Shown: positions 40,280-64,000 of the stretch, in pieces | Layout: every line of letters begins with the position of its first letter | Numbering within the stretch: position 1 is the stretch's first letter | From: Candidatus Latescibacterota bacterium | Lineage (GTDB): Bacteria; Latescibacterota; UBA2968; UBA8231 | Assembly (NCBI GenBank): GCA_965204725.1 | Contig: OZ242005.1 | Span: 1,952,001-2,016,000, forward strand | DNA: 64,000 bases | Direction of reading: 5' to 3' | Notes under the pieces: generated by a model | Databases searched by the model: none | The model's input: the letters and a program-made list of their open reading frames with translations, nothing else | What the model was told of the DNA's origin: nothing | Translations under genes and position numbers: made by a program

Positions 40280-42559
40280 ATGAGGGGAGGAATCATCGTC
40301 CTCGCCGGGCTGGGCACCACGCACATCCTCGTCCGCACTGCCACCTATGGCGCGGCCGTCAACGCCGACACCACCCTTCATCTTTCTACGGCCCTGAACT
40401 TCCTCGCCGGAGAGGGCTGGCAGGATTTCACCGGCTCCAAGGCAATCGAGTGGCCGCCCGGCTTCACCCTGCTGCTAGCGGCCTTCGATTGGATCGGCAT
40501 CGAGCCGCTGGCCGCGGGTCGGTGGGTCAACGCCATCGCCTTCGGGCTGACCATCCTCGCCGCAGGTCTCTGGCTGCACTCAAATCTCCGGTCACAGTGG
40601 CTGACGCTGGCGACCACCGCGATCCTCGCGGCCTCCCTGCCCCTGACCCATTTCGCATCCTACTGCATCACCGAGCCGCTCTTCGTCCTGTTCACGCTCC
40701 TCGCCTTGATCCAACTGGCATCCTTCCTCGACAGAAAGACAGCTTGGTCGCCCCTGCTGCTGGCGGCAGTTTTCACCGCATTGGCCGCACTGACCCGCTA
40801 TGTAGGCGTCGCCCTAATCGGCGCTGGCGTCCTCGTGCTGCTGCCCCTCGCTCGGCTGAGGCACACCTTCGTCTTTGGCGCGATCTCGTCTCTGCCCTTG
40901 CTGGCAGTATTGGCGTACAATTGGGCGGTCTCCCAGACCCTGACCGGGCCGAGACCCGGATCGGGACAGTCTTTGTCAGACTCGCTGAGCCAAGTAATGG
41001 AGGTGTTCCGCGCGTGGGTCGTTCCCCCCAACGCGCCGGCGGGGTTGGCGCCTCTGCTGTGGCTGGCGGTCGCCGTGGTCGGGCTGGCCGGCGCGGCCGT
41101 CGTCCTTCGTTCCGCTCGAAGGCGAAGCGACTTCCGTTTGAAGCCGGCACTCCCTTTCGGGATGTTCGCTGGGGGCTACCTCGTATTCATGATCGTCGTC
41201 GTGCCGCTCACGGTCGGGGAGGGGGTCAACAGCCGCTTCCTGCTGCCGGTGTATGTGCCGTTGCTGTTGACGGCGGTGTTGCTGCTGGATCGGTTCCTGT
41301 CCATCGAGGCTATGGGACAGATGGTGGCCGCCCGCTACGGTCTGACTGCCCTCGTCCTGCTAGCCACCCTCGCCCACGTCGGCTGGTCAGCGCACAGGAA
41401 CCTCACTATTACCGCCGAAGCGCGGGTCGCCGGGTTCGGGATGTACAACAACACCTATTGTGCAAGCTCCGATATCCTGAATTACATCCGGGACAACCGC
41501 ATCAATGGCCGGATGTACAGCAACAACTGCTACCTTACTTGGTTTTGGGACCAGACCGCGGCCCCGGGAAAGCACCAACTTCTCCCAGACGAGATTCACA
41601 GTTTGACGTCGACCATACTGCGGTGGACCAACAGCGGCAGCGCACACATCGCATGGTCCCGGAGTGAAAAGTCTTTTTACGACTTCGACGACCTCGACAT
41701 CCGGGTCCTGCCCGGAGTAGAACCCGTGGCCGAGTTGTACGACGGTGTTGTATTCCGCGTAACGGCCACCGAACCGTTCGATGCGGAAAGGCATCGCGCC
41801 CGAAAACAACGCTACGTAGATCAACTCATCGAGCAGGCTGGCGAGCCGGTAGTCCGCGCTGCTTGGGATGTGTACCGCACAAGACGCAAGCTGACCTACC
41901 TCAAAAACCCGTGTGCCTCCGCCGACACGCAGGCGGAGTTCATCTTGCAGGCCATCCCCGTCGATCCAGCCGACCTGCCCTCCCACCGCAGGCCGTATGG
42001 CTTTGACTCCCTCAGCTTCTATTTCCACATCCGCGGCGGCATCCAGCTCGACGACCAGTGCGTGGTGACCGCCTCTCTCCCCGACTACGACATCAGCCGT
42101 ATCCGAGTCGGCCAGTGGAGTACCGAAGAGAACCGCACCCTTTGGGAAACGACAGCCGAACCGTTCAATGCAGACAGGCATCGCGCCCAAAGACAACGCT
42201 ACGTAGATCAACTCATCGAACAGGCCAGCGAGCAGGTGGCCCGCGCCGGCTGGAGCGTGTACCGCAAGGGACGCAAGCTGATCTACCGCAAAGAGCCGTG
42301 TGCTCCCGCCGACACCCAAGCGAAGCTCGTTTTACACGTCACCCCTGTCGATCCGGCCGACCTGCCGGCTGACCGCGAGCGGCACGGCTTTGACAGCCTC
42401 GGCTTCTATTTTGACCAGCGCGGCTTCCGGCTCGACGACCAGTGCATCGCAATCGCCCAACTCCCCGACTACCCCATCGGCCGCATCCGGGTCGGCCAGT
42501 GGATTGCCGACGGGAACCGCACCGTCTGGGATGCGGAATTTCTGGAGATCGGCGGATAA
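40280..42559 (+). CDS. array gene 2: GT-C fold membrane glycosyltransferase-like, 2 C-terminal repeat domains, replaced N-terminus
   Basis: D..STALNFLAGEGW..WPP loop, TEPLF, ALAALTRY, RFLLPVY motifs; lacks the MPMPEL leader. Confidence 0.75.
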   Translation: MRGGIIVLAGLGTTHILVRTATYGAAVNADTTLHLSTALNFLAGEGWQDFTGSKAIEWPPGFTLLLAAFDWIGIEPLAAGRWVNAIAFGLTILAAGLWLHSNLRSQWLTLATTAILAASLPLTHFASYCITEPLFVLFTLLALIQLASFLDRKTAWSPLLLAAVFTALAALTRYVGVALIGAGVLVLLPLARLRHTFVFGAISSLPLLAVLAYNWAVSQTLTGPRPGSGQSLSDSLSQVMEVFRAWVVPPNAPAGLAPLLWLAVAVVGLAGAAVVLRSARRRSDFRLKPALPFGMFAGGYLVFMIVVVPLTVGEGVNSRFLLPVYVPLLLTAVLLLDRFLSIEAMGQMVAARYGLTALVLLATLAHVGWSAHRNLTITAEARVAGFGMYNNTYCASSDILNYIRDNRINGRMYSNNCYLTWFWDQTAAPGKHQLLPDEIHSLTSTILRWTNSGSAHIAWSRSEKSFYDFDDLDIRVLPGVEPVAELYDGVVFRVTATEPFDAERHRARKQRYVDQLIEQAGEPVVRAAWDVYRTRRKLTYLKNPCASADTQAEFILQAIPVDPADLPSHRRPYGFDSLSFYFHIRGGIQLDDQCVVTASLPDYDISRIRVGQWSTEENRTLWETTAEPFNADRHRAQRQRYVDQLIEQASEQVARAGWSVYRKGRKLIYRKEPCAPADTQAKLVLHVTPVDPADLPADRERHGFDSLGFYFDQRGFRLDDQCIAIAQLPDYPIGRIRVGQWIADGNRTVWDAEFLEIGG

Positions 42560-44941
42560 ATGCCAATGCCTGAGTTGAAAGACGCCGCCATCGAGAAGAT
42601 CGCCCGGTTCGGGCGCGCTCCCTTCGCGCTGCTCATCGTCGTTCTCGCTGGGCTGGGGACAGCGCACATCCTCGTCCGCACCGCTACCTACGGCGCCACG
42701 GTCATCACGGACTCCTTCCATTTCCTTTCTACGGCCCTGAACTTCCTCGCCGGAGAGGGCTGGCGGGATTTCACGGGCGAACCGATGACCTTATGGCCGC
42801 CTTTGTTTCCGCTGCTGCTGGCGGCCTTCGGTTGGGTCGGCGTCGATCCGCTGGAGGCGGGTCGGTGGGTCAACGCCGTGGCCTTTGGGCTGACCATCTT
42901 GGCCGCGGGGGGTTGGCTGTACTCGAACCTCCGGTCGCGGTGGCTGGCACTGGTCGCCACCGGGGTCCTAACGGTCTCCCTGCCCTTGAGTAACTGGGCA
43001 GCCCACTTCATGACCGATCCGCTCTTCGTCCTGTTTACACTCCTCGCCTTGATGCAGTTGGCGGCCTTCCTCAACCGCGGCGCAAGGACATCCCTGTGGT
43101 GGGCGGCGTTTTTCACCGCGCTGGCCGCGCTGACCCGCTATCCGGGCGTGGTCCTGATCGGCGTCGGCGTCCTGCTGCTGCTGGGGTGGCGCACCCGTTC
43201 GCTGGCCGCCCGGTTGAAAGACGCTGTCGTATTTGGGGCGGTCTCATCCATTCCCCTCGCGGGGGTGCTGACGCGCAACTGGGTCGTCTCTGGGACCCTG
43301 ACCGGGCCGAGAAGCGGGGCGGGGCAGTCCCTGTCCGATGGGCTGAGCCAAGTGGTGGATGGATTCCGGGGGTGGGTGATTCCCCCGAACACGCCGGACG
43401 GGTTGGGTTATCTCCTGTCGATAGCGGCCGGACTAGTCGTTCTAGCAGCGGGAGCGGTCGTCTTCTGTCGGGTCGCGGCGTACGGCAGGGGCGGCAAGTC
43501 GCCATCCTTCGGGTTGGGGCCGGTTCTCCCTTTCGGGGGGTTCGCCGCGATTTACCTCGTATTCATCGTCGTCACCGTGCCGCTCGTGGTCCCTTGGGGG
43601 ATGCTCGCCCGCTTTCTGCTGCCGATATACGTGCCGCTGCTGTTGACCGGGGTGTTTTTGCTGGACCGGCTCCTGTGCATTGAGGCGGCGGGATGGATGG
43701 CGGCCGGCCGCTGCGTTGTGGCGGCCCTCGTCTTGCTGGCCACCCTCGCCCACATCGGCTTCTCGGCGCGAGAAAACCTCCGTATTACCATCCAAGCTTA
43801 TGGTGGTGGATACTACTCTTACAACAACACCACCCATTGGCAACAGTCCCTAGATTATATCCGGAATCACCATATTGAGGGCAGGATTTACAGCAATCAC
43901 GCACTCCTTGCTTGGTTTGGGGATAGGACCGCCGCCCTGGGAAAGTACCAGCAGATCCGTGCCGGGTTGCCCGTTTTGGCGAGGGACATGATGCAGTGGA
44001 CCAAAGACGGCATCGGTGCCCATATCGTTTGGTTCCGGTCGTTCGGTGATCAAGGTTTTTACGGCTACGACCTCATGGATATCCGTCTGCTGCCCGGGGT
44101 GGAATCCGTGGCCGAGTTGGCCGACGGCGTGGTATTCCGCGTAACGGCCGCCGAACCCTTCGATGAGGCCAAGCATCGCGCCCGAAAACAACGCTACGTG
44201 CAGCAACTCATCGAACGGGCTGGTGAGTTGGTGGTCCGCGCCGATTGGGACGTGTACCGCACAGGACGCAAGCTGACATACCTCAAAAACCCGTGTGCCT
44301 CCGCCGACACGCAGGCGGAGTTCATCTTGCACGCCACCCCCGTCGATCCAGCCGACCTGCCCTCCCACCGCAGGCCGTACGGCTTTGACTCCCTCAGCTT
44401 CTATTTCAACGTCCGCGGCGGCATCCGGCTCGACGACCAGTGCGTGGTGAGTACCCAACTCCCCGACTACGACATCAGCCGCATCCGAGTCAGCCAGTGG
44501 AGTACCGAAGAGAACCGCACCCTCTGGGAAACGACGGCCGAACCGTTCAATACAGAAAGGCATCGCGCCCAAAGACAACGCTACGTAGATCAACTCATCG
44601 CACAGGCCGACGAGCAAGTGGCCCGCGCTGGCTGGAACGTGTACCGCAAGGGACGCAAGCTCATCTACCGCAAAGAGCCGTGTGCCCCCGCCGACGTGCA
44701 GGCAAAGTTCGTCTTGCACGTCACCCCCACCGACCCAAATGACCTGCTGGCCGACCGCAAGTGGCGCGGCTTTGACAGCCTCGGCTTCTATTTTGACCAG
44801 CGCGGCTTCCGGCTCGACGACCAGTGCATCGCAATCGCCCAACTCCCCGACTACCCCATCGGCCGCATCCGGGTCGGCCAGTGGATTGCCGACGGGAACC
44901 GCACCGTCTGGGAAGCGGAGTTTCTGGAGATCGGCGAATGA
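42560..44941 (+). CDS. array gene 3: GT-C fold membrane glycosyltransferase-like, 2 repeat domains
   Basis: Same motifs; start abuts the upstream stop. Confidence 0.78.
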   Translation: MPMPELKDAAIEKIARFGRAPFALLIVVLAGLGTAHILVRTATYGATVITDSFHFLSTALNFLAGEGWRDFTGEPMTLWPPLFPLLLAAFGWVGVDPLEAGRWVNAVAFGLTILAAGGWLYSNLRSRWLALVATGVLTVSLPLSNWAAHFMTDPLFVLFTLLALMQLAAFLNRGARTSLWWAAFFTALAALTRYPGVVLIGVGVLLLLGWRTRSLAARLKDAVVFGAVSSIPLAGVLTRNWVVSGTLTGPRSGAGQSLSDGLSQVVDGFRGWVIPPNTPDGLGYLLSIAAGLVVLAAGAVVFCRVAAYGRGGKSPSFGLGPVLPFGGFAAIYLVFIVVTVPLVVPWGMLARFLLPIYVPLLLTGVFLLDRLLCIEAAGWMAAGRCVVAALVLLATLAHIGFSARENLRITIQAYGGGYYSYNNTTHWQQSLDYIRNHHIEGRIYSNHALLAWFGDRTAALGKYQQIRAGLPVLARDMMQWTKDGIGAHIVWFRSFGDQGFYGYDLMDIRLLPGVESVAELADGVVFRVTAAEPFDEAKHRARKQRYVQQLIERAGELVVRADWDVYRTGRKLTYLKNPCASADTQAEFILHATPVDPADLPSHRRPYGFDSLSFYFNVRGGIRLDDQCVVSTQLPDYDISRIRVSQWSTEENRTLWETTAEPFNTERHRAQRQRYVDQLIAQADEQVARAGWNVYRKGRKLIYRKEPCAPADVQAKFVLHVTPTDPNDLLADRKWRGFDSLGFYFDQRGFRLDDQCIAIAQLPDYPIGRIRVGQWIADGNRTVWEAEFLEIGE

Positions 44942-47362
44942 ATGCCAATGCCTGAGTTGAAAGACGCCGCCATCGCGTGGCTCGCCCCGTGCTGGCGCAC
45001 CCGCTTCCCCCTGCTCATCGTCTGTATCGCCGGGCTGGGCACCGCGCACATCCTCGTCCGCACTGCTACCTACGGCGCGGCGATCGGCGAGGACGCTACA
45101 ATTTTCCTTTCTACGGCCTTGAACTTCCTCGCGGGAGAAGGCTGGCTGGATCTCGTGGGCAGACCGCTGGTGGGGTGGCCGCCCTTGTTCCCCCTGCTGC
45201 TGGCAGCCTTCGGTTGGGTCGGCATCGAGCCGCTGGAAGCGGGTCGCTGGATCAACGCCACCGCCTTTGGGCTGACCATCCTAGCCGCAGGTCTCTGGCT
45301 GCACTCAAATCTCCGGTCGCGGCTGCTGACGCTGGTCGCCACCGCAATCATCGCGACCTCCCTGCCCTTGAGCCATCTGGCGTCAAGCTTCTTGACCGAG
45401 CCGCTCTTCGTCCTGTTCACGCTCCTCGCCTTGATCCAGTTGGGGACTTTCCTCAATTGCGGCGGGAGGACGCCCCTACTGCTAGCCGCGGTTTTCACCG
45501 CCTTGGCCGCACTGACCCGCTATCAGGGGCCCGCCCTGATAGCGGGCGGCGTCCTGTTGCTGCTGCTCTGCGCCCGGCTGAAGCATACCCTCGTCTTTGT
45601 CGCGATCTCGTCTGTGCCCTTGCTGGCGGTATTGGTGCGCAATTGGGCCGTCTCCGGGACCCTGACCGGGCCGAGATCCGGCGTGGGACAGTCCCTATTC
45701 GATGGACTAAGCCAGACCGTCGATGTGTTCCGCACGTGGGTCGTCCCCTCCAACGCGCCGGGCTGGTTCGGTTATCTCCTGTGGCTGGCTTTCGGAGTTG
45801 TCGTCCTCGCCAGCGCGGCGGTCGTCCTGCGCACCAGCAGAGCACCCACAAGGGACGCTGCCGACTCCCCATCGTATTTCCGTTTGAGGCCGGCTCTCCC
45901 TTTCGGGGTGTTCGCCGGAGTCTATCTGTCATTGATGGCCGTCGTGCCCTTATTCGTGTTGCAGGCGGGCATCGAAAGCCGCTACCTGCTGCCGGTGTAT
46001 GTGCCGCTGCTGTTGGCGGCGATGTTGCTGCTGGATCGGTTCCTGTCCATCAAGGCTACGGGCCGGATGGCCGCGACCCAGTACGGGGTGGCGTCCCTCG
46101 TCTTGCTGGGAGCCTGCGCCCACGTCGGCAGCTCGGCGCACAGGAACCTCACTATTACCGCCGAAGCGTGGGTCGCCGGGTTCGGGATCTACAACAACGA
46201 CTATTGTGCAACCTCCGAGATACTGAATTACCTCCGGGACACCCCCATCGATGGCCGGATATACAGCAACAACTGCTTCCTTGCTTGGTTTTGGGATCGG
46301 ACCGCGGCCCCGGGAAAGTACCATTATATCCCAGACCAGATTCACAGTTTGACGTCGGTCATACACAGCGACAGCGACAGCGCGCATATCGTATGGTCCC
46401 GGAGTGAAAAGTCTTTTTACGACTTCGACGATCTCGACATCCGGGTCCTGCCCGGCGTGGAACCCGTGGCCGAACTGGCCGATGGCGTGGTATTCCGCGT
46501 AACGGCCGCCGAGCCGTTCGATGCAAAAAGGCATCGCGCCCGCAAACAACGCTATGTGCAGCAACTCATCGAACAGGCCGGCGAGTTGGTGATCCACGCC
46601 GACTCGACGTGGCCGGTCAGCACTTGGGGCGTAGAACGGACCGACGAGCAGGTCGCCCGCGCCGGCTGGGACATGTACCGCAACGGACGCAAGCTGACCT
46701 ACCACAAAAAGCCGTGTGCCCCCGACGATGTGGAGGCGAATTTCGTCTTGCAAGTCAGCCCGGACGAACCGGCCTACCTGTCAGCCGACCGCAGGCAGTA
46801 CGGCTTTGACCACCTCGACTTCAATTTTCGCATCCACGGCGGCGTCCGGCTCGACGAGCAGTGTGTGGTGACCGCCCAACTTCCCGACTACCCCATCAGC
46901 CACCTCTATATCGGCCGGTGGATGGCCGGCAACGACCGCATGCTCTGGGAAGTGAAGGCCGAATCGTTCAAGTCGGAAAGGCACCCCGCCCAGAGACAAC
47001 GCGACGCGGAGCAACTCATCGCACAGGCCGGCGAGCCGGTGGTTCGCGCCGACTGGAGCGTGTACCGCACCGGACGCAAGCTGACCTACCGCAAACAGCC
47101 CTGCGGCCCCGACGACGTGCAGGCGAAGTTCATTTTGCACGTCACCCCCGCCGACCCCAACGACCTGCCGACCAACCGCCAGCGGCACGGCTTTGAAAGC
47201 TTCAGCTTCTATTTTGACCAGCGCGGCTTCCAACTCGACGACCAGTGCATCGCAATCGCCCAACTCCCCGACTCCCCCATCGGCCGCATCCGAGTTGGCC
47301 AGTGGATTTCCAAAGGGAACCGCACCGTCTGGGAAGCGGAGTTTCTGGAGATCGGCGAATGA
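44942..47362 (+). CDS. array gene 4: GT-C fold membrane glycosyltransferase-like, 2 repeat domains
   Basis: Same motifs; start abuts the upstream stop. Confidence 0.78.
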   Translation: MPMPELKDAAIAWLAPCWRTRFPLLIVCIAGLGTAHILVRTATYGAAIGEDATIFLSTALNFLAGEGWLDLVGRPLVGWPPLFPLLLAAFGWVGIEPLEAGRWINATAFGLTILAAGLWLHSNLRSRLLTLVATAIIATSLPLSHLASSFLTEPLFVLFTLLALIQLGTFLNCGGRTPLLLAAVFTALAALTRYQGPALIAGGVLLLLLCARLKHTLVFVAISSVPLLAVLVRNWAVSGTLTGPRSGVGQSLFDGLSQTVDVFRTWVVPSNAPGWFGYLLWLAFGVVVLASAAVVLRTSRAPTRDAADSPSYFRLRPALPFGVFAGVYLSLMAVVPLFVLQAGIESRYLLPVYVPLLLAAMLLLDRFLSIKATGRMAATQYGVASLVLLGACAHVGSSAHRNLTITAEAWVAGFGIYNNDYCATSEILNYLRDTPIDGRIYSNNCFLAWFWDRTAAPGKYHYIPDQIHSLTSVIHSDSDSAHIVWSRSEKSFYDFDDLDIRVLPGVEPVAELADGVVFRVTAAEPFDAKRHRARKQRYVQQLIEQAGELVIHADSTWPVSTWGVERTDEQVARAGWDMYRNGRKLTYHKKPCAPDDVEANFVLQVSPDEPAYLSADRRQYGFDHLDFNFRIHGGVRLDEQCVVTAQLPDYPISHLYIGRWMAGNDRMLWEVKAESFKSERHPAQRQRDAEQLIAQAGEPVVRADWSVYRTGRKLTYRKQPCGPDDVQAKFILHVTPADPNDLPTNRQRHGFESFSFYFDQRGFQLDDQCIAIAQLPDSPIGRIRVGQWISKGNRTVWEAEFLEIGE

Positions 47363-49450: not shown

Positions 49451-49478
49451 TGCAGGGCACCCGATATTACGCGATGCC

Positions 49479-50450
49479 CTACTCGGCTCGGTCTAACAGG
49501 AGCCTAAAGGCTTCGAGGCTGGGCACCTGTATGGCCGCCCGATGCAACTGCTTGAGACGCGGCACATCGTCGGTGGCCTCAATGCGGGCGGCCAACGGAT
49601 CCGACGCAGCTAGCCCAAAGCGAACCTCGAGCACCTCGAGCAGAGCTTCAATGGTGCGTTCTCGGCCGCCTTGCTCAATGCCCTGCTCAATGCCCTGCTC
49701 GATGCCCTGCTCAATGCCCTGCTCAATGCCCTGCTCGATGCCCTGCTCGATGCCCTGCTTAATGCCCTGCTTAATCCCCTTTTCCGTGAAATACTGCGCT
49801 ACCGACGACTCGTACATGGTCTCCTCCTCGATGATGGTCATGATCGTCTCTAAGTTATACACCAGCCCGCTCAACATCGCAAGATCGGCCAGATAATTGG
49901 CTTTGACGCCCTCGTCCATCGGCACCTGTTGCGCCCGGTTGACACACTGGCGCAACCACCCCTCGGCATCTACTCCCACCGGCGGCTGCATCAGCGGCGC
50001 GAACGGCAGCAAGCCGGAAGGTCCCGCGGCGAGGATGCGTTGGCCGTCTATCTCAATCAGCCGAATGACCTTGTATTGCACTAAGACGCGGTAGCCGGAA
50101 CGCTCTTGGACGTAGTAGCCCGGATCATTTCGGCCAGCGTCTGGGCGCAAATAGATTACGTTGGAATAGATGGGTCGGTTGTGCTGTTCAATGCCGCGTC
50201 CGATATAGCCGATCATGCGGCGCGGCATGGGCGGTTTGCTGTCGGTGGTTTGGAACTCGTGGTGGACCAGCACCTCCTCGCCGCCGACGTGGACGCGAAT
50301 GAGGCTATCGGTGCGGTGGGTTTCGGCGGTGGGCTGCTCGGTATCGACGACGCCGAGGACTTGGACGTCGTCTTGTTGGAGGGCGAAGCGGGCGAAGTCG
50401 GCGGGGTAGGTGTGGATGAGGTGTTTGGCGATGGAATCGAATTCGGCCAT
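49479..50450 (-). CDS. Rpn family recombination-promoting nuclease/putative transposase, copy 1
   Basis: FDSIAKHL, RTDSL, HHEFQT, MPRRM, GLLPFAPL, [KE]QGI repeats, LEVRFG C-terminal domain. Confidence 0.85.
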   Translation of the reverse strand: MAEFDSIAKHLIHTYPADFARFALQQDDVQVLGVVDTEQPTAETHRTDSLIRVHVGGEEVLVHHEFQTTDSKPPMPRRMIGYIGRGIEQHNRPIYSNVIYLRPDAGRNDPGYYVQERSGYRVLVQYKVIRLIEIDGQRILAAGPSGLLPFAPLMQPPVGVDAEGWLRQCVNRAQQVPMDEGVKANYLADLAMLSGLVYNLETIMTIIEEETMYESSVAQYFTEKGIKQGIKQGIEQGIEQGIEQGIEQGIEQGIEQGIEQGGRERTIEALLEVLEVRFGLAASDPLAARIEATDDVPRLKQLHRAAIQVPSLEAFRLLLDRAE

Positions 50451-50597
50451 GGGTCTTGCCTTGGGTTGCGGGTGGGATGGGGTGGTATTCGCAATAGGCA
50501 AGAATCGTGCCACGGCGGCGGCTCATAGGGGCGGGCTGGGGATCGGCGGCGTGGGTGTGTAGCGAAAAGGGGACAGGCGTGGGACGTTGGGGGAAAA

Positions 50598-50704
50598 GTT
50601 TGACTGACTTGCCCACTCGCGTGGGGCAAGATAAAAACAAGGCCCTAGAGGGATTTACCAAAAAATACCGCGTACATACATTTGGTTTATGTTGAACAAT
50701 ATGA
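50598..50704 (+). pseudogene. GIY-YIG (YhbQ/UPF0213-like) nuclease remnant
   Basis: TDLPTRVGQDKNKALEGFTKKYRVHT, then after a frameshift VYVEQYE. Confidence 0.65.
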
Positions 50705-52720: not shown

Positions 52721-52756
52721 ATTTGACCTCAACCTAGGACTGCTATCAATGGATAA

Positions 52757-54829: not shown

Positions 54830-54876
54830 CTCGAAAGCATGAAATGTTCATCGGCACCGTCTTTTTGCCTATAAGG

Positions 54877-54931
54877 CGTCCTTCCCGCGCACGAACGTCA
54901 CCCCGTGCCCCGACACGGGGCGGGAATCCAG
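54877..54931. repeat. GTCATTCCCGC-type REP with a nested hairpin insert
   Basis: CGTCCTTCCCGCGCA[CGAACGTCACCCCGTGCCCCGACACGGG]GCGGGAATCCAG. Confidence 0.65.
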
Positions 54932-54965
54932 TCTTGAAAGATGTAGGATTACTATATATGAATGA

Positions 54966-57425: not shown

Positions 57426-57432
57426 TATACCA

Positions 57433-59787
57433 ATGCCTGAGTTGAAAGACGCCGCCATCGAGCGACTCGCCCGGTGCTGGCGCGACCGCTACGCACTGCT
57501 CATCGTCGTCCTCGCCGGGCTGGGCACCGCCCACATCCTCGTCCGCACCGCTACCTACGGCGCCGCAGTCGGCACGGACTCCATCGTTTTCCTTTCTACG
57601 GCCCTGAACTTCCTCGCCGGAGAGGGCTGGCGGGATTTCACCGGAGTACCGATGGTGGTTTGGCCGCCCTTGTTCCCCTTGCTGCTGGCGGCCCTCGGTT
57701 GGGTTGGCCTCGAGCCGCTGGCGGCGGGTCGGTGGGTCAACGCCGCAGCTTTCGGACTGACCATCCTCGCCGCCGGGTGCTGGCTGCGCTCGAATGTTAG
57801 GTCGCAGGGGCTGGCACTGGCCGCTACCGCGACCCTCGCGGCCTCCCTGCCCTTGAGCGATTGGGCGTCCAACTATATGACCGAGCCCCTCTTCGTCCTG
57901 TTGACGCTCCTCGCCTTGATCCAGTTGGCGGCCTTCCTCCAGCGCGGCGGGAGGACGCCCCTTTTGTGGGCGGCGGTTTTCACCGCGCTGGCCGCACTGA
58001 CCCGCTATCCGGGCGTGGTGCTGATCGGCACCGGCGTCCTCATCCTGTGGCCCCTCGCTCGGTGGAAGCAGGTCCTCGTCTTTGGCGCGGTCTCGTCCGT
58101 GCCCTTGCTGGCGGTATTGGCGCACAATTGGACAGTCTCCGCGACTTGGACAGGAGACCGATCAGACCCTGTAAGGCAGTCCCTATCCGAGGGGCTACGC
58201 CAGACCGTCGAGGTGTTCCGCGCGTGGATCGTCCCCCCCCACGCGCCGGATGGGGTTGCGTATCTGCTGTGGCTGGCCATCGGGTTGGTCGTCCTCGCCG
58301 GCACCGCGGTCGTCCTGCACACCCTCCGAAGGCACCGCGACGTCCCAGAGGCGACCCCAGTCTATTTCCGCTTAGGGCCGGTACTCCCATTCGGGGTGTT
58401 CGCCTTGATCTACTTCGTATTCATCATCGTCGTCGTGCCACTGACGATTCCCTATGGAATCGGCGACCGACTCCTGTTACCGGGGTACGTGCCGCTGCTG
58501 TTGACGGCGGGGTTCTTGCTGGATCGGTTCCTGTGCATCGCGGCGGCGGGCTGGATGGTGGCCATCCGCTACGGGATAGCGTCCCTCGTCTTGCTCGCCA
58601 CCCTCGCCCACTTATGCTTCTCGGCGCGAGAAAACCTCCGTCTTACCACCCACGCTTGGGTCGCCGGATACCCGGCCCAAGCGTACAACGCCGCCGCTTG
58701 GCAACAGTCCGAGACCCTGAATTACCTCCGGGACCACCACATTGAGGGCAGGATTTACAGCAACCACAGACCCCTTGCTTGGTTTGCGGATCGGACCGCG
58801 GCTTACGAAAAATACCAGCCGATCCGTGCCGGGTTGCCTCGTTTGGCGCGGGACATAATGCAGTGGACCGAGGACGGCACCCATATCGTTTGGTTCAGGG
58901 CGTTCCACAATCAAGGTGTTTACGGCTACGACCTCATGGACCTCCGTCTGTTGTCCGGCGTGGAACCCGTGGCCGAACTGGCCGATGGCGTGGTATTCCG
59001 CGCAACGGCGACCGAGCCGTTCGATGCAGAAAAGCATCGCGCTCGGAAACAACGCTACGTGCAGGAACTCATTGAACAGGCTGGCGAGCCGGTGGTCCGC
59101 GCTGGCTGGGACGTGTACCTCAAGGAACGCAAGCTGACCTACTTCAAAGAGCCCTGCGCCCCGGCCGACACGCAGGCGATGTTCGTTTTACACGCCATCC
59201 CCCTCGACCCAGCCGACCTGCCCGCCCACCGCAAGCCGTACGGCTTTGACCTCCTCGACTTCTATTTCGACTGGCGCGGCGGCGTGCGGCTCGACGACCA
59301 GTGTGGGGTGATCGCCCAACTCCCCGCCTACGCCATCGGCCGCATCCGGATCGGCCAATGGATTGCCGCCGAAAACCGCACCCTCTGGGAAACGACGGCC
59401 GAACCGTTCGACGCGAAAAGGCATCAACGCTACGTGGAACAACTCATCGCACAGGCTGACGAGCAGGTCACTCGCGCCGGCTGGGACGTGTACCGCACCG
59501 GACGCAAGCTGATCTACCGCAAACAGCCATGCGCTCCCGCCGACGTGCAGACCAAGTTCATTTTGCACGTCACCCCGGCCGATCCCAATGAGCTGCCGGC
59601 CAACCGCCAGCGGCACGGCTTTGAAAGCCTCGGCTTCTATTTTGACCAGCGCGGCTTCCAACTCAATGACCAGTGCATCGCAATCGCCCAACTCCCCGCC
59701 TACGCTATCGATCGCATCCGAGTCGGCCAGTGGATTGCCGCCGGGAATCGCACTGTCTGGGAAGCGGAGCTTTCGGCCAGCCGGTGA
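57433..59787 (+). CDS. array gene 9: GT-C fold membrane glycosyltransferase-like, 2 repeat domains
   Basis: Same motifs; the first leader ATG is mutated to ATA (57427), so the second ATG at 57433 is the likely start. Confidence 0.78.
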   Translation: MPELKDAAIERLARCWRDRYALLIVVLAGLGTAHILVRTATYGAAVGTDSIVFLSTALNFLAGEGWRDFTGVPMVVWPPLFPLLLAALGWVGLEPLAAGRWVNAAAFGLTILAAGCWLRSNVRSQGLALAATATLAASLPLSDWASNYMTEPLFVLLTLLALIQLAAFLQRGGRTPLLWAAVFTALAALTRYPGVVLIGTGVLILWPLARWKQVLVFGAVSSVPLLAVLAHNWTVSATWTGDRSDPVRQSLSEGLRQTVEVFRAWIVPPHAPDGVAYLLWLAIGLVVLAGTAVVLHTLRRHRDVPEATPVYFRLGPVLPFGVFALIYFVFIIVVVPLTIPYGIGDRLLLPGYVPLLLTAGFLLDRFLCIAAAGWMVAIRYGIASLVLLATLAHLCFSARENLRLTTHAWVAGYPAQAYNAAAWQQSETLNYLRDHHIEGRIYSNHRPLAWFADRTAAYEKYQPIRAGLPRLARDIMQWTEDGTHIVWFRAFHNQGVYGYDLMDLRLLSGVEPVAELADGVVFRATATEPFDAEKHRARKQRYVQELIEQAGEPVVRAGWDVYLKERKLTYFKEPCAPADTQAMFVLHAIPLDPADLPAHRKPYGFDLLDFYFDWRGGVRLDDQCGVIAQLPAYAIGRIRIGQWIAAENRTLWETTAEPFDAKRHQRYVEQLIAQADEQVTRAGWDVYRTGRKLIYRKQPCAPADVQTKFILHVTPADPNELPANRQRHGFESLGFYFDQRGFQLNDQCIAIAQLPAYAIDRIRVGQWIAAGNRTVWEAELSASR

Positions 59788-59869: not shown

Positions 59870-60817
59870 CTACTCGGCTCGGTCTAACAGGAGCCTAAAG
59901 GCTTCGAGGCTGGGCACCTGTATGGCCGCCCGATGCAACTGCTTGAGACGCGGCACATCGTCGGTGGCCTCAATGCGAGCGACCAACGGATCCGACGCAG
60001 CCAGCCCAAAGCGAATCTCTAGCACCTCAAGCAGAGCTTCAATGGTGCGTTCTCGGCCCCCTCGCTCGATGCCCTGCTCAATGCCCTGCTCAATGCCCTG
60101 CTCGATGCCCTGCTCAATGCCTTGCTTAATGCCCTGCTTAATCCCCTTTTCCGTGAAATACTGCGCTACCGACGACTCGTACATGGTCTCCTCCTCGATG
60201 ATGGTCATAATCGTCTCTAAGTTATACACCAGCCCGCTTAACATCGCAAGATCGGCCAGATAGTTCGCCTTGCGTCTCTCGTCCATCGGCACCTGTTGCG
60301 CCCGGTTGACACACTGGCGCAACCACCCCTCGGCATCGACGCCGGCGGGCGGTTGCATCAACGGCGCAAACGGCAGCAAGCCGGAAGGTCCGGCGTCGAG
60401 GATGCGTTGACCGTCGATCTCAATCAGCCGGATGACCTTGTATTGCACCAAGACGCGATAGCCGTGCCGCTCTTGGACATAGTGCCCTGGGTCATTCCGG
60501 CCAGCGTCTGGGCGCAGGTAGATGACGTTGGAATAGATGGGCCGGTTGTGCTGTTCAATGCCGCGTCCGATATAGCCGATCATGCGGCGCGGCATGGGGG
60601 GTTTGCTGTCGGTGGTTTGGAACTCGTGGTGGACCAGCACCTCCTCGCCGCCGACGTGGACGCGAATGAGGCTATCGGTGCGGTGGGTTTCGGCGGTGGG
60701 CTGCTCGGTATCGACGACGCCGAGGATTCGGATGTCGTCTTGTTGGAGGGCGAAGCGGGCGAAGTCGGCGGGGTAAGTGTGGATGAGGTGTTTGGCGATG
60801 GAATCGAATTCGGCCAT
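59870..60817 (-). CDS. Rpn family nuclease, copy 2
   Basis: Near-identical to copy 1, 8 aa shorter in the repeat tract. Confidence 0.85.
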   Translation of the reverse strand: MAEFDSIAKHLIHTYPADFARFALQQDDIRILGVVDTEQPTAETHRTDSLIRVHVGGEEVLVHHEFQTTDSKPPMPRRMIGYIGRGIEQHNRPIYSNVIYLRPDAGRNDPGHYVQERHGYRVLVQYKVIRLIEIDGQRILDAGPSGLLPFAPLMQPPAGVDAEGWLRQCVNRAQQVPMDERRKANYLADLAMLSGLVYNLETIMTIIEEETMYESSVAQYFTEKGIKQGIKQGIEQGIEQGIEQGIEQGIERGGRERTIEALLEVLEIRFGLAASDPLVARIEATDDVPRLKQLHRAAIQVPSLEAFRLLLDRAE

Positions 60818-60964
60818 GAGCCTTGCCTTGGTTGCGGGTGAGAGGGGGTGGTATGTGCAACTGGCAAGAATCGTGCCACGGCGGCGGTTCAGAGGGGCGG
60901 GGCGTGGATGGGCGGCGTGGGAGTGTGGCGAAAAGGGGACAGGGGTGGGACGTTGGGGGAAAAA

Positions 60965-61044
60965 CTGGATTGCCGCGTGCGCGGGAATGACGGAAGGCTT
61001 AGGACGACGCAAGAACTCGTCATTCCCGTGCAAGCGGCAATCCA
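60965..61044. repeat. REP doublet (GTCATTCCCG...AATCC family)
   Basis: TGGATTGCCGCGTGCGCGGGAATGACG...CGTCATTCCCGTGCAAGCGGCAATCCA inverted pair. Confidence 0.75.
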
Positions 61045-61132
61045 TAAAAGCGTCCTACCCCAACAACTGAACTGTTCTTGTGCAGGCAGGACGGCTTAAA
61101 CGGGTTCGGACAGAACGCTATTACGCGAAGCC

Positions 61133-62056
61133 CTACTCGGCTCGGTCTAACAGGCGTCCAAAGGCGTCAAGGCTGGGCACCTGTATGGCCGCCCGATGCA
61201 ACTGCTTGAGGCGCGGCACATCGGCGGTGGCCTCAATGCGAGCGACCAACGGATCCGACGCGGCCAACCCAAAGCGAACCTCTAGCACCTCAAGCAGACC
61301 TTCAGTGGCGAGTTCTCGGCCCCCTCGCTCAATGCCCTGCTCAATGCCTTGCTCGATGCCCTGCTTAATCCCCTGCTTAATCCCCTTTTCCGTGAAATAC
61401 TGCGCTACCGACGACTCGTACATGGTCTCCTCCTCGATGATGGTCATAATCGTCTCTAAGTTATACACCAACCCGCTCAACATCGCAAGATCGGCCAGAT
61501 AGTTCGCCTTGACGCCCTCGTCCATCGGCACCTGTTGCGCTCTATTCACACACTGGCGCAACCACCCCTCGGCATCGACGCCTGCGGGCGGCTGCATCAA
61601 CGGCGCAAACGGCAGCAGGCCCGAAGGTCCCGCGGTGAGGATGCGTTGACCGTCGATCTCAATCAGCCGAATGACCTTGTATTGCACCAAGACGCGGTAG
61701 CCGCGTCGTTCTTGGACGTAGTAGCCCGGGTCATTTCGGCCAGCGTCTGGGCGCAAATAGATGACGTTGGAATAGATCGGCCGGTTGTGCTGTTCAATGC
61801 CGCGTCCGATATAGCCGATCATGCGGCGCGGCATGGGCGGTTTGCTGTCGGTGGTTTGAAACTCGTGGTGGACCAGCACCTCCTCGCCGCCGACGTGGAC
61901 GCGAATGAGGCTATCGGTGCGGTGGGTTTCGGCGGTGGGCTGCTCGGTATCGACGACGCCGAGGATTTGGATGTCGTCTTGTTGGAGGGCGAAGCGGGCG
62001 AAGTCGGCGGGGTAGGTGTGGATGAGATGCTTGGCGATGGAATCGAATTCGGCCAT
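61133..62056 (-). CDS. Rpn family nuclease, copy 3
   Basis: Near-identical to copies 1 and 2, 16 aa shorter than copy 1. Confidence 0.85.
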   Translation of the reverse strand: MAEFDSIAKHLIHTYPADFARFALQQDDIQILGVVDTEQPTAETHRTDSLIRVHVGGEEVLVHHEFQTTDSKPPMPRRMIGYIGRGIEQHNRPIYSNVIYLRPDAGRNDPGYYVQERRGYRVLVQYKVIRLIEIDGQRILTAGPSGLLPFAPLMQPPAGVDAEGWLRQCVNRAQQVPMDEGVKANYLADLAMLSGLVYNLETIMTIIEEETMYESSVAQYFTEKGIKQGIKQGIEQGIEQGIERGGRELATEGLLEVLEVRFGLAASDPLVARIEATADVPRLKQLHRAAIQVPSLDAFGRLLDRAE

Positions 62057-62182
62057 GAGCCTTGCCTTGGTTGCGGGTGAGAAGGGGTGGTATGTGCAAT
62101 AGGCAAGAATCGTGCCATGGCGGCGGCTCAGAGGGGAGACGGGGGATCGGCGGCGTGGGTGTGTAGCGAAAAGGGGACAGGC

Positions 62183-62311
62183 GTGGGGCAACATAAAAAC
62201 AAGGCCCCGGAGGGATTTACCAAAAAATACAGCATTCATACATTGGTTTATGTTGAACAACATCACAAGAAATGGCACCGTCAATGGAAACGGGAACTCA
62301 TAGCGCGGCAG
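62183..62311 (+). pseudogene. GIY-YIG (YhbQ/UPF0213-like) nuclease remnant
   Basis: VGQHKNKAPEGFTKKYSIHTLVYVEQH-HKKWHRQWKRELIARQ; lacks the N-terminal GIY/YIG motifs and the A..REK helix. Confidence 0.7.
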
Positions 62312-62346
62312 ATTTTGCATATAAGGCGTCATTTGTATGTTGCGTA

Positions 62347-62525
62347 TTCCTTTCAGCTAGGCCACTCTGAAAGGGCCGCGTGCGGGGCGCGTCGTCCGTC
62401 ATTGGGTGCGCCGGCACGTCCGTGCCGGCGGCACCGTGCGGGAGTAAGACACCCCTCACGCTGAGTTGTCGCTCCGAACCGATACAAGGGCACAAGGCCC
62501 GTATTACAAGTGGGGAGGACAGCAC
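62347..62525 (+). ncRNA. IS110 bridge RNA (predicted)
   Basis: 5' hairpin 62349-62374; target loop with TCCGTCATT (62395-403) and GCGGGAG (62438-444); donor loop with ACCGATAC (62478-485) and TACAAGT (62505-511); each pair surrounds a hairpin. Confidence 0.8.
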
Positions 62526-62556
62526 CAGTATCCATTATAACCAGGAGGCTATTCGC

Positions 62557-63510
62557 ATGAAAGTTATGGCCGGTATAGACGTAGGAAAGAGGAGCTTGGA
62601 CGTGTCGGTAGCGGCTGGTCCGGCGCGTCGATTTGACAACACGCCTGCGGGGCGTACGGCCTTGGTGGAGTGGTTGGAACGTCAGGGGGCGACCGAGGTG
62701 GTGTGCGAACCGACCGGGGGCTATGAGCGGCCTCTGGTGCGTCGGGTGCAGGCCACGGGATGGCCGATCCACCTAGTGCATCCCAACCGTGTGCGCCACT
62801 TTGCCCGGGCGGCGGGCAACCACGCCAAGACCGACGCGCTGGACGCACAGATGCTGGCGCGGTATGGGATGGCCTTCGAGTTGCCGCGTCCGCTGGCCAA
62901 AGAAGCCGACCGAGAGGTGGTACAGGACCTGCTGCGTCGGCGCAAGCAGTTAGTCAACCAGCGCGTACAGGAGCGTCATCGGCTGGACCAAGGGCAAACC
63001 GAAGGGGCGCGCATCTCTATCGAGCGGCACCTCCAATGGCTCGACGAAGAGATTAGCCAGCTCGACGAAGCCTACCAGCAGGCGTTGGCACACAGCGTCT
63101 CATTGGCCGAGGCCGCCGCCCTCTACCGCAGTGTACCGGGCGTGGGTGCGTTGACTGCGGCGACGCTAGTGGGGTATCTGCCGGAGTTAGGGCACTACAG
63201 CGGCAAGGAGGTGACCTCGTTGGTCGGGCTGGCTCCGTGGGCCAACGACAGCGGCCGACAGCAGGGGTATCGCTCGATCCGGGGCGGACGAGGCACCGTG
63301 CGGAAGGTGTTGTACTTGGCGGCCTTGGCCGCCATCCGCTGCAATGACGACCTCAAGCGGTTCTATCAACGACTGTGTACCCGGGGCAAGACCGGCAAGG
63401 TGGCCTTGGTCGCGGTAATGCGGAAGCTCCTGCTGGTGCTCAACGCTATTGCCCAGCGAGGCTCCCCGTGGGTCCAACACCCCACCCCAGCAGGCCACAA
63501 AAAGGCTTGA
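62557..63510 (+). CDS. IS110 family DEDD recombinase/transposase
   Basis: SD CAGGAGG; GIDVGK, CEPTG, KTDALDA (DEDD), SVPGVG, NDSG (catalytic Ser), VAVMRKLL. Confidence 0.95.
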   Translation: MKVMAGIDVGKRSLDVSVAAGPARRFDNTPAGRTALVEWLERQGATEVVCEPTGGYERPLVRRVQATGWPIHLVHPNRVRHFARAAGNHAKTDALDAQMLARYGMAFELPRPLAKEADREVVQDLLRRRKQLVNQRVQERHRLDQGQTEGARISIERHLQWLDEEISQLDEAYQQALAHSVSLAEAAALYRSVPGVGALTAATLVGYLPELGHYSGKEVTSLVGLAPWANDSGRQQGYRSIRGGRGTVRKVLYLAALAAIRCNDDLKRFYQRLCTRGKTGKVALVAVMRKLLLVLNAIAQRGSPWVQHPTPAGHKKA

Positions 63511-63527: not shown

Positions 63528-63637
63528 CCCGCGCAAGCGGGAATCCAGTGTTCTTTCAGGGGAGGACGCTTTTATGGATTCCCGCGTTCGCGGGAATGAC
63601 GAAAAATAACGGACATGACGAAAAATAACGGACGAAA
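63528..63637. repeat. REP doublet (first copy split by IS110) followed by a 19-bp tandem duplication
   Basis: CCCGCGCAAGCGGGAATCCA...TGGATTCCCGCGTTCGCGGGAATGAC; ATGACGAAAAATAACGGAC x2. Confidence 0.75.
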
Positions 63638-63669
63638 AAATGCGAATCGACGCGGCTGTTGACAGATGA

Positions 63670-64000
63670 ATGCTAATGCCTGAGTTGATGCGCTCCGTCA
63701 TCGAATGGCTCGCCCGGTTCTGGCGCGACCGCTTCCCCCTGCTCATCGTCCTTATCGCCGGGCTGGGCACCGCCCACATCCTCGTCCGCACCGCCACTTA
63801 CGGCGCGGCCGTCAGCCACGAATCCACAATCCACCTTTCTACGGCCCTGAACTTCCTCGCGGGCGAGGGCTGGCGGTATTTCACGGGCAGCCCGATGATA
63901 GGATGGCCGCCCTTGTTCCCCCTGCTGCTCGCGGTCGGCGGTTGGGTCGGCATCGAGCCGCTAGAGGCGGGTCGGTGGGTCAACGCCATGGCCTTTGGGC
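63670..64000 (+). CDS. array gene 10 (5' part, runs off window): GT-C fold membrane glycosyltransferase-like
   Basis: MLMPELMRSVIEWLARFWRDRFPLLIVLIAGLGTAHILVRTATYGAAVSHESTIHLSTALNFLAGEGWRYFTGSPMIGWPP. Confidence 0.8.
   Translation, partial: MLMPELMRSVIEWLARFWRDRFPLLIVLIAGLGTAHILVRTATYGAAVSHESTIHLSTALNFLAGEGWRYFTGSPMIGWPPLFPLLLAVGGWVGIEPLEAGRWVNAMAFG

Follow-up and report, generated by a model that had tools for sequence, protein, structure and literature searches.

A recombining family of GT-C-like glycosyltransferase paralogs with fast-evolving sites beside a putative catalytic aspartate in a sponge-associated Latescibacterota bacterium

Introduction

Bacterial genomes usually encode a few GT-C glycosyltransferases, and each of these has a single dedicated function, for example lipid A modification, protein O-mannosylation or N-glycosylation; ArnT is single-copy, and the protein O-mannosyltransferases (PMTs) carry a MIR domain. 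As described in one account of the fold (PMC7801869), GT-C enzymes possess an acidic motif (DD, DE or DxD) after TM1 in the first extracytoplasmic loop, the first Asp of the TM1-TM2 loop being the active site in ArnT, Pmt1 and EmbB, while the acceptor site is formed by EL1, EL2 and EL4 and an Arg before TM10 binds the donor phosphate. A large, lineage-specific multi-copy glycosyltransferase family linked to cell-surface decoration, which the family described here may resemble, is formed by the trypanosomatid UDP-glycosyltransferases of eukaryotic parasites (PMC5853035); these use UDP-sugars, whereas the present family matches GT-C structures. Among the titles and abstract openings of the literature searched, no paper describing such an expansion was found: the accessible part of a paper on sponge Latescibacterota MAGs gives CAZyme counts only, and GT39 receives no more than a brief mention in a Thaumarchaeota paper.

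Here we analyse a window of 64,000 nucleotides from a sponge-associated bacterium, in which an array of membrane glycosyltransferase paralogs is found. An initial annotation of this DNA covered 9 of the approximately 50 paralogs.

Results

Organization of the array and size of the family

Genes 2-9 of the array span 40259 to 59787, and beyond the window the array goes on with genes 11 and 12. The features of the window are given below; residues are numbered after gene 3, the protein of which was also used for structure modelling.

36824..37021, plus strand: remnant of the family N-terminus (..VIDGGAVYFLSTASNFLAGEGW..) without a start codon, directly 5′ of gene 1; a stop-to-stop ORF with a match to the NFLAGEGW DNA motif, 88 nt of which are 93% identical to nt 132-219 of gene 7
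37025..39685, plus strand: gene 1, 886 aa; multi-TM domain unlike that of the family and containing an HVDEA motif, fused to family-type C-terminal repeats R1 and R2 (repeat tree)
40259..42559, plus strand: gene 2, 766 aa, loop VNADTTLH, two repeats (translation, MAFFT alignment, Pfam PMT above cut-off)
42560..44941, plus strand: gene 3, 793 aa, loop VITDSFHF, two repeats (translation, alignment)
42695..42724, plus strand: first variable block of gene 3, codons 46-55, with fast sites 49, 50 and 54 (entropy, likelihood tests)
42710-42712, plus strand: D51 codon of gene 3, inside the first variable block
42764..42793, plus strand: second variable block of gene 3, codons 69-78, immediately 5′ of the invariant WPP, with fast sites 74, 76, 77 and 78
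44942..47362, plus strand: gene 4, 806 aa, loop IGEDATIF (alignment)
47363..49450, plus strand: gene 5, 695 aa, loop VGTDSTTF, one repeat (translation, alignment)
49479..50513, minus strand: Rpn-like gene for a putative recombination-promoting nuclease or transposase, inside the array and convergent with gene 5 (NCBIfam TIGR01784, weak: E 5.5e-5, below cut-off; other copies in the genome)
50705..52720, plus strand: gene 6, 671 aa, loop IGTDSVAF, one repeat (translation, alignment)
52757..54829, plus strand: gene 7, 690 aa, loop VIEGGAVY, Gly in place of D51, R1-type repeat only (translation, alignment)
54966..57425, plus strand: gene 8, 819 aa, loop VIDGDSVR, two repeats (translation, alignment)
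57433..59787, plus strand: gene 9, 784 aa from the homologous Met, loop VGTDSIVF, two repeats; the open frame starts at 57226
59870..62332, minus strand: two further Rpn-like genes, 59870-61045 and 61133-62332 (translations, genome copies)
62380..63510, plus strand: IS110-family transposase (Pfam DEDD_Tnp_IS110 and Transposase_20)
63670..64000, plus strand: gene 10, loop VSHESTIH, Glu in place of D51, running off the window end

Gene 1 gave no Pfam match, and its matches to the family are limited to the repeats and one short stretch. All nine loop variants listed in the initial annotation were found in the sequence, with a correction to their numbering: gene 1 lies outside 40280..64000, the range to which they had been assigned, and the ninth loop, VSHESTIH, belongs to the tenth gene.

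Genome-wide, the search gave 87 match rows and 57 ORFs, with 50 near-full-length paralogs in about eight loci plus fragments, and the family makes up roughly 2% of the genome DNA. A pattern search for related loci in genome contigs returned 29 matches, none of them confirmed. In metagenomes, 7080 cluster representatives matched at E≤0.001, and the databases searched held no name or annotation for the family. The largest array is flanked on one side by sugar-kinase, nucleotidyltransferase and epimerase/dehydratase genes, and on the other by YfhO and TMEM260-like genes, which we take to be other GT-C families; the NDP-sugar synthesis genes beside this array are the only, and indirect, hint that sugar may be transferred from a polyprenyl-phosphate-linked donor. 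Parts of the stretch are contained in 17 sequencing runs from seven studies, some labelled sponge or marine metagenome, and no RNA run is listed among them.

An assembly artefact was considered as a source of the array and rejected: the paralogs are about 60-95% identical and are not strain-level variants, the contig measures 5.38 Mb, and relatives of genes 2 and 3 (95% and 96% identical) each occur on a 62,374-base contig of another assembly. Comparison of the Logan contigs of four runs with the array produced many apparent joints at 90% likeness that are indistinguishable from partial mapping of other paralogs; at a few hundred to about 1300 nt, these contigs are uninformative on structural variants and on within-population loop variation.

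Relationship to ArnT and the protein O-mannosyltransferases

The AF2 model of gene 3 (pLDDT 91.8, pTM 0.83) retrieved 50 PDB matches at E≤0.001 with Foldseek, in which GT-C enzymes lead from rank 1 (ArnT 5f15, E 2.3e-8), and VIA aligned 360-460 of its residues at Z 20-25 with Pmt4, Pmt1/2, STT3, ArnT, PglB and ALG12. On this modelled structure, the family proteins have a GT-C fold like that of PMT, ArnT and STT3, in which an N-terminal GT-C membrane domain is followed by an alpha/beta domain in the periplasm and, at the C-terminus, by one or two beta-sandwich repeats. The membrane domain is best matched by the protein O-mannosyltransferases (GT39; Pmt1/Pmt2 6p25 and Pmt4 9i5l; Z 25.3 and 24.9, with 367 aligned residues and an rmsd of 4.3 for Pmt4, the match at Z 25.3), from which the family differs in having no MIR domain and in its periplasmic domain and repeats. 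ArnT (GT83; C. metallidurans 5f15/5ezm; Z 23.5, 436 aligned, model residues 19-530) and the bacterial PMT_2/ArnT-like enzymes share with it both the GT-C fold and a C-terminal periplasmic domain. In ArnT as in the family, an Asp stands immediately after TM1, where the first periplasmic helix begins, and the invariant R351 of the family would match an Arg before TM10. The differences from ArnT are the very weak sequence relationship, a Ser rather than a Glu after the Asp, the one or two extra C-terminal beta-sandwich repeats, and the roughly 50 copies per genome.

By sequence, the affiliation is weak. Only one of the nine window proteins, gene 2, passes the Pfam gathering score for PMT (25.2 bits against a cut-off of 22.7); genes 3, 4, 6 and 7 match PMT/PMT_2 (PF02366, PF13231) below the cut-off, and genes 1, 5, 8 and 9 have no PMT match. 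PDB searches with the single sequence and with a profile returned no meaningful match, the best being RNase H at E 0.018 and designed proteins, and the NCBIfam ArnT model did not match at E≤0.1. When a 76-sequence profile was aligned to E. coli K-12 ArnT by hhalign, a single 22-column stretch was obtained (E 0.3, probability 0.2), which pairs D51 with the D of the ArnT PDETRY motif. Neighbours in the ESM Atlas fall in clusters in which 17-100% of the members carry PMT_2. For the C-terminal repeat, Pfam offered only DUF2259 (E 0.062), Foldseek nothing at E≤0.001, and VIA a best Z of 6.9 among generic FN3, Ig and CBM sandwiches, so that no specific family is assignable.

In the model, D51 follows TM1 (helix 21-40) and caps helix 50-63, and its position is that of the catalytic Asp of solved GT-C enzymes, which suggests a catalytic role. 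Among 76 homologs, some with as little as about 30% identity, near-invariance is seen for D51, R193, R351 and D369; D51 is present in at least 90% of these homologs and in 43 of the 50 paralogs and is under purifying selection. Residue 52 is Ser, and there is no second acidic residue after D51. R351, which is invariant in the 76 homologs and all 50 paralogs, begins helix 350-373 of the model and, by its place in the order of helices, would be the counterpart of the donor-phosphate Arg before TM10. In gene 7, as had been proposed, the alignment places a Gly at the Asp position. Seven of the 50 paralogs have no D51, six of them without any acidic residue there, and they retain R40, R193, R351 and D369; either the Asp may not be strictly needed, or some copies may be non-catalytic.

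Mosaic structure of the paralogs

The initial annotation had described nearest relatives that switch along the gene, and all the motif pairings on which it drew are present in the translations and the MAFFT alignment. In the periplasmic region, genes 2 and 4 share HRNLTITAEA and WSRSEKSFYDFDDLD, genes 3 and 9 share IRAGLP..LARD.MQWT and YGYDLMD, genes 7 and 8 share GNKPWMINSRSWE, and genes 6 and 9 share GYPAQAYNAA. The pairs change in the first repeat: LKNPCASADTQAEF is found in genes 2 and 3, EPAYLSADRRQYGFDHLDFNFRIH in genes 4 and 8, and PDDGQT in genes 1 and 7. KERYQERY is common to genes 5 and 6, and the RLKDA insert to genes 3, 7 and 8. Gene 4 has gene 2 as its nearest relative in the periplasmic part and gene 8 in R1.

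Without any recombination, sampling alone could produce such switching if the family were star-like and its rates varied along the gene. Much of the raw switching is noise: simulations on one tree already give 83.9 ± 8.6 nearest-neighbour switches against the 111 observed. Even so, none of 100 such simulations reached 111 switches or the observed number of distinct neighbours. PHI gave z −13.9 for 11 genes and −12.4 for the eight genes of the window (in both cases 0/1000 permutations as low), and the values of −13.9 to −15.8 stand against a mean of 0.42 and a minimum of −1.38 in 40 simulated non-recombinant alignments, none of which had p≤0.05. In AU tests, segments S1, S2 and S3 each rejected every other segment's tree (p 7e-8 to 0.016). 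A single tree for all segments is therefore rejected, the mosaicism is confirmed to exceed chance, and a family free of recombination is largely refuted and, in our estimate, very improbable.

Individual exchanges are visible as internal patches with sharply lower identity on both flanks. Paralogs B1 and D16, with 310 kb between them, share about 364 nt at 96%, flanked by 68% and 82% (next-best paralog 82%), and genes 2 and 3 share 147 nt at 100% against 79% overall. A dispersed copy of gene 8 is 95-96% identical to it and lies at a distance of 757 kb in the genome. For the most part, exchange is old, with a median nearest-neighbour identity of 90% and only 4.4% of 40-codon windows at ≥98%. 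A GENECONV-like identical-run test of the membrane and periplasmic parts, which has little power for old tracts, gave many pairwise p values below 0.01 and a single globally significant tract in 55 pairs (genes 7 and 8, p 0.019); its mostly non-significant global outcome is what a non-recombining family would also give, and recent conversion in these parts is rare, because only this one pair is significant. The internal patches shared by distant arrays are compatible with the gene conversion originally proposed; part of the exchange is due to unequal crossing-over and to domain swaps, and the three are not fully separable.

Fast-evolving sites flanking D51

Site tests were made by a marginal-likelihood grid (two-rate and one-rate) together with counts in sister pairs. 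In the two-rate test, beta exceeded alpha at 37 of 509 sites and fell below it at 148; residual recombination inside the 107-codon segments can inflate site tests of this kind. Residues 49, 50, 54 and 78 were among those with beta>alpha (p 1.6e-6 to 0.019), residue 54 being the strongest positive site of all (p 1.6e-6), while D51 was under purifying selection. The beta/alpha values at 49, 54 and 78 were 3.6/0.25, 4.4/0.35 and 5.4/1.45 (BH q<0.05), and the four sites recur in 39 paralogs outside this array, which the initial annotation had not seen. In the one-rate test, five of the eight fastest sites lay in the two EL1 blocks. Across 16 sister pairs, pN/pS was 2.49 at sites 49/50/54, where the choice of sites by their high amino-acid variability inflates pN, against 0.42 in the rest of the segment. 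The anchors said to bound the variable blocks are indeed constant or nearly so among the genome-wide paralogs (N61, G67, P80 and P81 in 50/50, E66 in 49/50).

These data could alternatively reflect neutral drift at unconstrained linker positions in an old recombining family, without selection for specificities. The second block fits this description, and may be merely unconstrained, because residues 72-78 had a near-neutral pN/pS of 0.91 in the 16 sister pairs and sites 74 and 77 also had high synonymous rates in the two-rate test; furthermore, background omega is already high (0.57-0.71 per segment), and between ortholog-like pairs the fast sites differ only 2.3-2.7 times as much as others, about the neutral expectation. 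Relaxation alone, however, caps omega at 1, and sites 49, 54 and 78 are well above it and replicated in the 39 other paralogs; they also lie amid the strongly purified D51, N61, E66 and P81. We consider drift alone unlikely, albeit a reading of some weight. The diversifying selection suggested for the loop is supported at residues 49, 50, 54 and 78, with the qualification that the second block may be free of constraint.

Fast sites occupied 32 of 228 predicted periplasmic positions against 12 of 281 elsewhere (p 8.5e-5), sidedness being assigned from helix order and the GT-C topology rule; in the stricter two-rate test the enrichment was weak (21/228 vs 16/281, p 0.089). With distances judged by homology, the fast sites probably lie near the active site, and by homology and topology the variable residues would be substrate-facing. 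Overall, the reading of gene conversion plus diversifying selection is supported: different segments call for different trees, and non-synonymous change is in excess at residues which, by homology, would adjoin the active site.

Short variable blocks between invariant anchors, with recombination-associated genes (Rpn-like, IS110) inside the array, could also suggest a programmed device that rewrites the loop, such as a diversity-generating retroelement, cassette switching or hypermutation. RVT_1 (PF00078), a model found in 3 of 14 control genomes, had no match in this genome (94% complete, two contigs), and donor cassettes were likewise not seen. All 15 relatives with readable loops from other assemblies (92.6-99.1% identity, including nine of gene 2 and three of gene 3, gene 4 and gene 9) had the same residues at the variable sites, and between close relatives the rate at the fast sites is only about 2.3-2.7 times that at the others. 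We therefore give such a device next to no credence, and ordinary recombination with selection is preferred to programmed diversification because no reverse transcriptase was found.

Discussion

The array belongs to an old recombining GT-C family with fast sites flanking the putative catalytic Asp, and we think it probable that it constitutes a repertoire whose enzymes differ in acceptor or donor specificity. By homology, the family proteins would be periplasm-facing glycosyltransferases for which a polyprenyl phosphate carries the donor sugar and a component of the envelope accepts it. The family evolves through tandem duplication and loss, and homologous recombination moves sequence among its copies, be they in one array or in different ones; this exchange comprises internal conversion-like patches, unequal crossovers and whole-domain swaps, and each gene is therefore a mosaic. 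At a few sites, concentrated in predicted periplasmic loops that would correspond to the substrate sites of solved GT-C enzymes, replacement outpaces the synonymous rate, and the strongest cluster of such sites flanks the putative catalytic Asp where the first loop begins.

A more far-reaching version, which we put forward tentatively as a possibility, is a combinatorial glycosylation repertoire of about 50 periplasmic GT-C enzymes, in which recombination makes new combinations of loop, periplasmic domain and repeat. The specificity of each enzyme would then depend on a small number of positions, some near the catalytic Asp and others in EL2, EL4 and EL5, and the product could be a variable, highly heterogeneous envelope glycan or glycoprotein coat serving sponge-host recognition or escape from phage or phagocytosis; the six copies without an acidic residue at position 51 could persist as non-catalytic binders.

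For the GT-C fold, whose specificity residues are hard to reach from single enzymes, about 50 recombining copies with replacement hot spots adjoining the probable catalytic Asp would amount to a natural experiment on these residues. For the sponge-associated, uncultured Latescibacterota, the family points to an unusually diverse envelope glycome.

Layout of the array and its neighbours

The + strand carries, from 40259 to 59787, a head-to-tail series of eight complete paralogous genes, with zero intergenic bases between neighbours among genes 2–5. The array is interrupted by three Rpn-like genes and one IS110 transposase, and the region upstream is ordinary chromosome, including an fts/mur division cluster. 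The initial annotation had numbered nine copies within 40280–64000; gene 1 lies outside that stretch, and the ninth loop listed, VSHESTIH, was read correctly and belongs to a tenth gene, incomplete at the window end. R1 and R2 below are the first and second C-terminal beta-sandwich repeats.

Features of the array region (window coordinates)
36824–37021: promoterless remnant of a family N-terminus, 198 nt, directly upstream of gene 1
37025–39685: gene 1, a different multi-TM membrane domain with an HVDEA motif, followed by family-type R1 and R2 repeats
49479–50513, − strand: Rpn-like gene 1, convergent with gene 5
59870–61045, − strand: Rpn-like gene 2, convergent with gene 9
61133–62332, − strand: Rpn-like gene 3, just past Rpn-like gene 2
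63670 to window end: gene 10 (loop VSHESTIH), truncated, with two further genes downstream in the genome

The three Rpn-like genes share 93–94% mutual identity, match TIGR01784 weakly and carry a variable GIEQ/GIKQ repeat. About 17 such copies occur in the genome, of which five lie no more than about 5 kb from a family gene: three in the window, one next to the singleton C1 and one close to the 4.06 Mb array. They may promote or accompany array rearrangements. The window also contains a low-GC island (2001–4300; GC 0.52 vs ~0.63) in which an AAA_21/AbiEii-like ATPase is encoded together with an N6_N4 DNA methylase; it is probably mobile and a module for restriction or defence. At 34897–35027, in intergenic DNA upstream of the GHL10 gene, 133 nt are 87% identical to C1:1247092–1247213 on the same contig, between an Rpn-like gene and a lone family gene, and form a small repeated element.

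A dispersed family of GT-C type

The window corresponds to G000:C1:1952001–2016000. Within this genome, a protein search returned 87 match rows, and an ORF and phmmer scan identified 57 ORFs, 50 of them near-full-length, spread over about eight loci and, from gene lengths, occupying roughly 2% of the genome. The largest array holds 23 near-full-length genes (1.45–1.50 Mb) and others hold 7, 3 and 2 copies; single genes, several broken copies and a divergent pair (~45% identity) also occur. Since matches were found in 11 of the 40 relatives searched, three of which gave 25–29 match rows each, the expansion is patchy across the lineage. An all-against-all representative search retrieved 7080 clusters with a cut-off of E≤0.001 and 1079 with E≤1e-30, and none of the best 120 matches in a large protein collection was a named protein.

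At a distance of 757 kb (G000:C1:1245951–1249682) stands a solitary family gene that matches gene 8 at 95.4% identity across 2412 nt. It adjoins an Rpn-like gene 92.5% identical to the one at window 61119–62260, and the pair represents a recent dispersed duplication. Inspection of the flanks of the 23-gene array (G000:C1:1444000–1453900 and 1502200–1512000) revealed GHMP kinase, nucleotidyltransferase and epimerase/dehydratase genes on one side, a candidate NDP-sugar pathway, and an SGNH/AlgX-like gene, a YfhO gene and a TMEM260-like TPR gene on the other.

Pfam matches of the window proteins to PMT and PMT_2 were weak, exceeding the gathering score in 1 of 9, and the GT-C-type NCBIfam matches were all sub-threshold. 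Gene 3 was modelled confidently with AF2 on 76 homologs (pLDDT 91.8, pTM 0.83). The model retrieved ArnT first in Foldseek (E 2.3e-8), followed by STT3, AftD, ALG12/9, Pmt4 and PglB; in VIA it scored Z 25.3 against Pmt4, 24.9 against Pmt1/2, 24.0 against STT3 and 23.5 against ArnT, and this last alignment extends across the periplasmic domain to residue 530. The membrane domain ends at about residue 416 and is followed by a periplasmic domain of alpha/beta type, a helix and a repeat of ~115 residues that is present once or twice. Modelled separately, a single repeat (pLDDT 83) had no matches other than generic FN3, Ig and CBM-like sandwiches, with Z 6.9 at best. R1 and R2 formed separate clades in the repeat tree, and the repeat duplication is therefore older than the window's array. 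The repeat also occurs on many other proteins of related genomes and metagenomes (examples in relatives G019, G025 and G032 and in protein P0122), including a 1851-residue protein matched over 8 stretches and a 1262-residue frame that carries at least 4 repeats. It is apparently an unnamed, mobile module.

Gene 1 shares only these C-terminal repeats with the family, and its membrane domain had zero Pfam matches. It looks like a fusion, and the first 88 nt of the remnant upstream are 93% identical to gene 7. Together these features suggest that gene 1 arose through membrane-domain replacement inside an old family member.

Recombination among the paralogs

Every motif pairing from which segmental mosaicism had been proposed was recovered in the alignment. 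In sliding windows of nucleotide identity, the nearest relative of gene 3 changes from gene 9 to 7, 11, 9 and 2 (94–100%), and that of gene 4 from gene 2 (94%) to 12 (96%) and 8 (96%). Although none of 100 single-tree simulations reached the observed 111 switches or 69 distinct neighbours, neighbour switching by itself is weak evidence for mosaicism, because such simulations already give 83.9 ± 8.6 switches. The formal recombination tests are decisive. With PHI, in our own implementation, 0/1000 permutations were as low as the observed z in the 11-gene set (z −13.9), the window's set of 8 (−12.4), the membrane domain taken separately (−7.8) and R1 (−6.7); the periplasmic domain gave z −2.3 (13/1000), and R2 fell short of significance. 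In 40 simulated non-recombinant alignments, z averaged 0.42, with a minimum of −1.38. The ML trees of five alignment segments disagreed, those of the two periplasmic segments being nearly congruent, and in the AU test segments S1, S2 and S3 each rejected all other segments' trees (p 7e-8 to 0.016). A single tree is thus rejected by both PHI and AU.

Family-wide, the number of different nearest neighbours per gene averages 10.7 over 25.5 windows. Nearest neighbours are in the same array in 59% of cases vs 27% expected at random; the median nearest-neighbour identity is 90%, and 4.4% of windows reach at least 98%. Genes 2 and 3 (79% identical overall) share 147 nt at 100%, genes 4 and 8 share 239 nt at 97%, and B1 and D16, two paralogs 310 kb apart, share ~364 nt at 96% between flanks of 68% and 82%, the next-best paralog being at 82%. 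Of 55 pairs tested strictly for identical runs in the membrane and periplasmic parts, just one tract reached significance at the global level. We read these data as many old and few recent exchanges, within and between arrays. The internal patches are compatible with gene conversion. Unequal crossover and domain swaps occur too, as shown by single-breakpoint chimeras, the differing number of repeats and the fusion in gene 1.

Probable diversifying selection around the putative catalytic Asp

In the gene 3 model, D51 follows TM1 (helix 21–40) and caps the first periplasmic helix (50–63). D51, R40, R193, R351 and D369 are near-invariant in homologs down to ~30% identity. One account of GT-C enzymes (PMC7801869) places the active site of ArnT, Pmt1 and EmbB at the first Asp of the TM1–TM2 loop, and assigns the acceptor site to extracytoplasmic loops EL1, EL2 and EL4 and the donor site to EL1 and EL4, with the donor phosphate bound by an Arg before TM10. 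The hhalign comparison with E. coli ArnT yielded one weak stretch (E 0.3), placing residues 48–69 on the PDETRY region and D51 on its D. We infer, on good grounds, that D51 is the catalytic Asp. It is kept in 43 of 50 paralogs, the lowest among family-wide invariant residues (R40, R193, R351 and D369 are kept in 49–50), and the other seven carry A, N, G, G, A, G and E. Six copies therefore have no acidic residue at 51, with the other four residues and the frame intact; gene 7 is among them, as the initial annotation had noticed. Judged from sequence, the copies without D51 could be pseudo-enzymes or users of an alternative base.

Two variable blocks (residues 46–55 and 69–78) flank the anchor NFLAGEGW. 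Among 50 paralogs, entropy reaches 2.9–3.3 bits at residues 49, 50 and 54 and 3.2–3.3 bits at 74 and 78, and the neighbouring N61, G67, P80 and P81 are invariant. In the site tests, each of five segments (81–107 codons) had its own tree, and the two-rate test computed codon likelihoods on a 25×25 grid of synonymous and non-synonymous rates; all resulting p values depend on residual within-segment recombination, the simple MG94-type model and grid resolution. Among 509 sites, 148 had beta<alpha and 37 beta>alpha at p<0.05, with 34 positive at BH q<0.1. Residue 54 was the top positive site in the protein (p 1.6e-6) and residue 49 the third (3.4e-4), residues 50 and 78 were positive as well, and D51, N61, A64, E66, W68 and P81 were purifying. 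Because the blocks had originally been picked from window genes, the first segment was rerun on the 39 paralogs outside the window's array, where residues 49, 50, 54, 78, 90 and 91 were positive (p down to 1.5e-8); the excess of non-synonymous change at 49, 50, 54 and 78 was thus reproduced, in line with the diversifying selection initially proposed. In 16 independent sister pairs, pN/pS was 2.49 at 49/50/54 (one-sided p 0.021), sites picked for their variability; the second block had 0.91 and the remaining sites of the segment 0.42.

With the synonymous rate fixed at the segment mean, the eight fastest sites were 50, 78, 74, 54, 49, 345, 347 and 252, of which 345 and 347 lie just before the invariant R351. 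Fast sites were enriched at assigned periplasmic positions (32/228 vs 12/281 elsewhere, p 8.5e-5), also within the membrane domain alone (16/105 vs 12/281, p 5e-4), and more weakly under the two-rate test (p 0.089). Helix order and homology place the fast sites near the active site.

Tempo of loop change

Among readable loops (two unreadable and one mis-extracted were left out), all 15 relatives from other assemblies, at 92.6–99.1% identity, had variable-site residues identical to their counterparts here. Over 29 ortholog-like pairs, fast sites differed in 12.9% of cases vs 5.6% at other sites, a ratio of 2.3 (2.7 at one pair per paralog), close to the 2.35 of paralog sister pairs. The variable sites are steadily fast, without hypermutation. 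No reverse transcriptase was found in the genome.

The initial observation is confirmed, and its interpretation holds in its main lines. Above all, the array belongs to a larger GT-C family with about fifty recombining members, in which the hot spots of replacement appear to surround the putative catalytic Asp.
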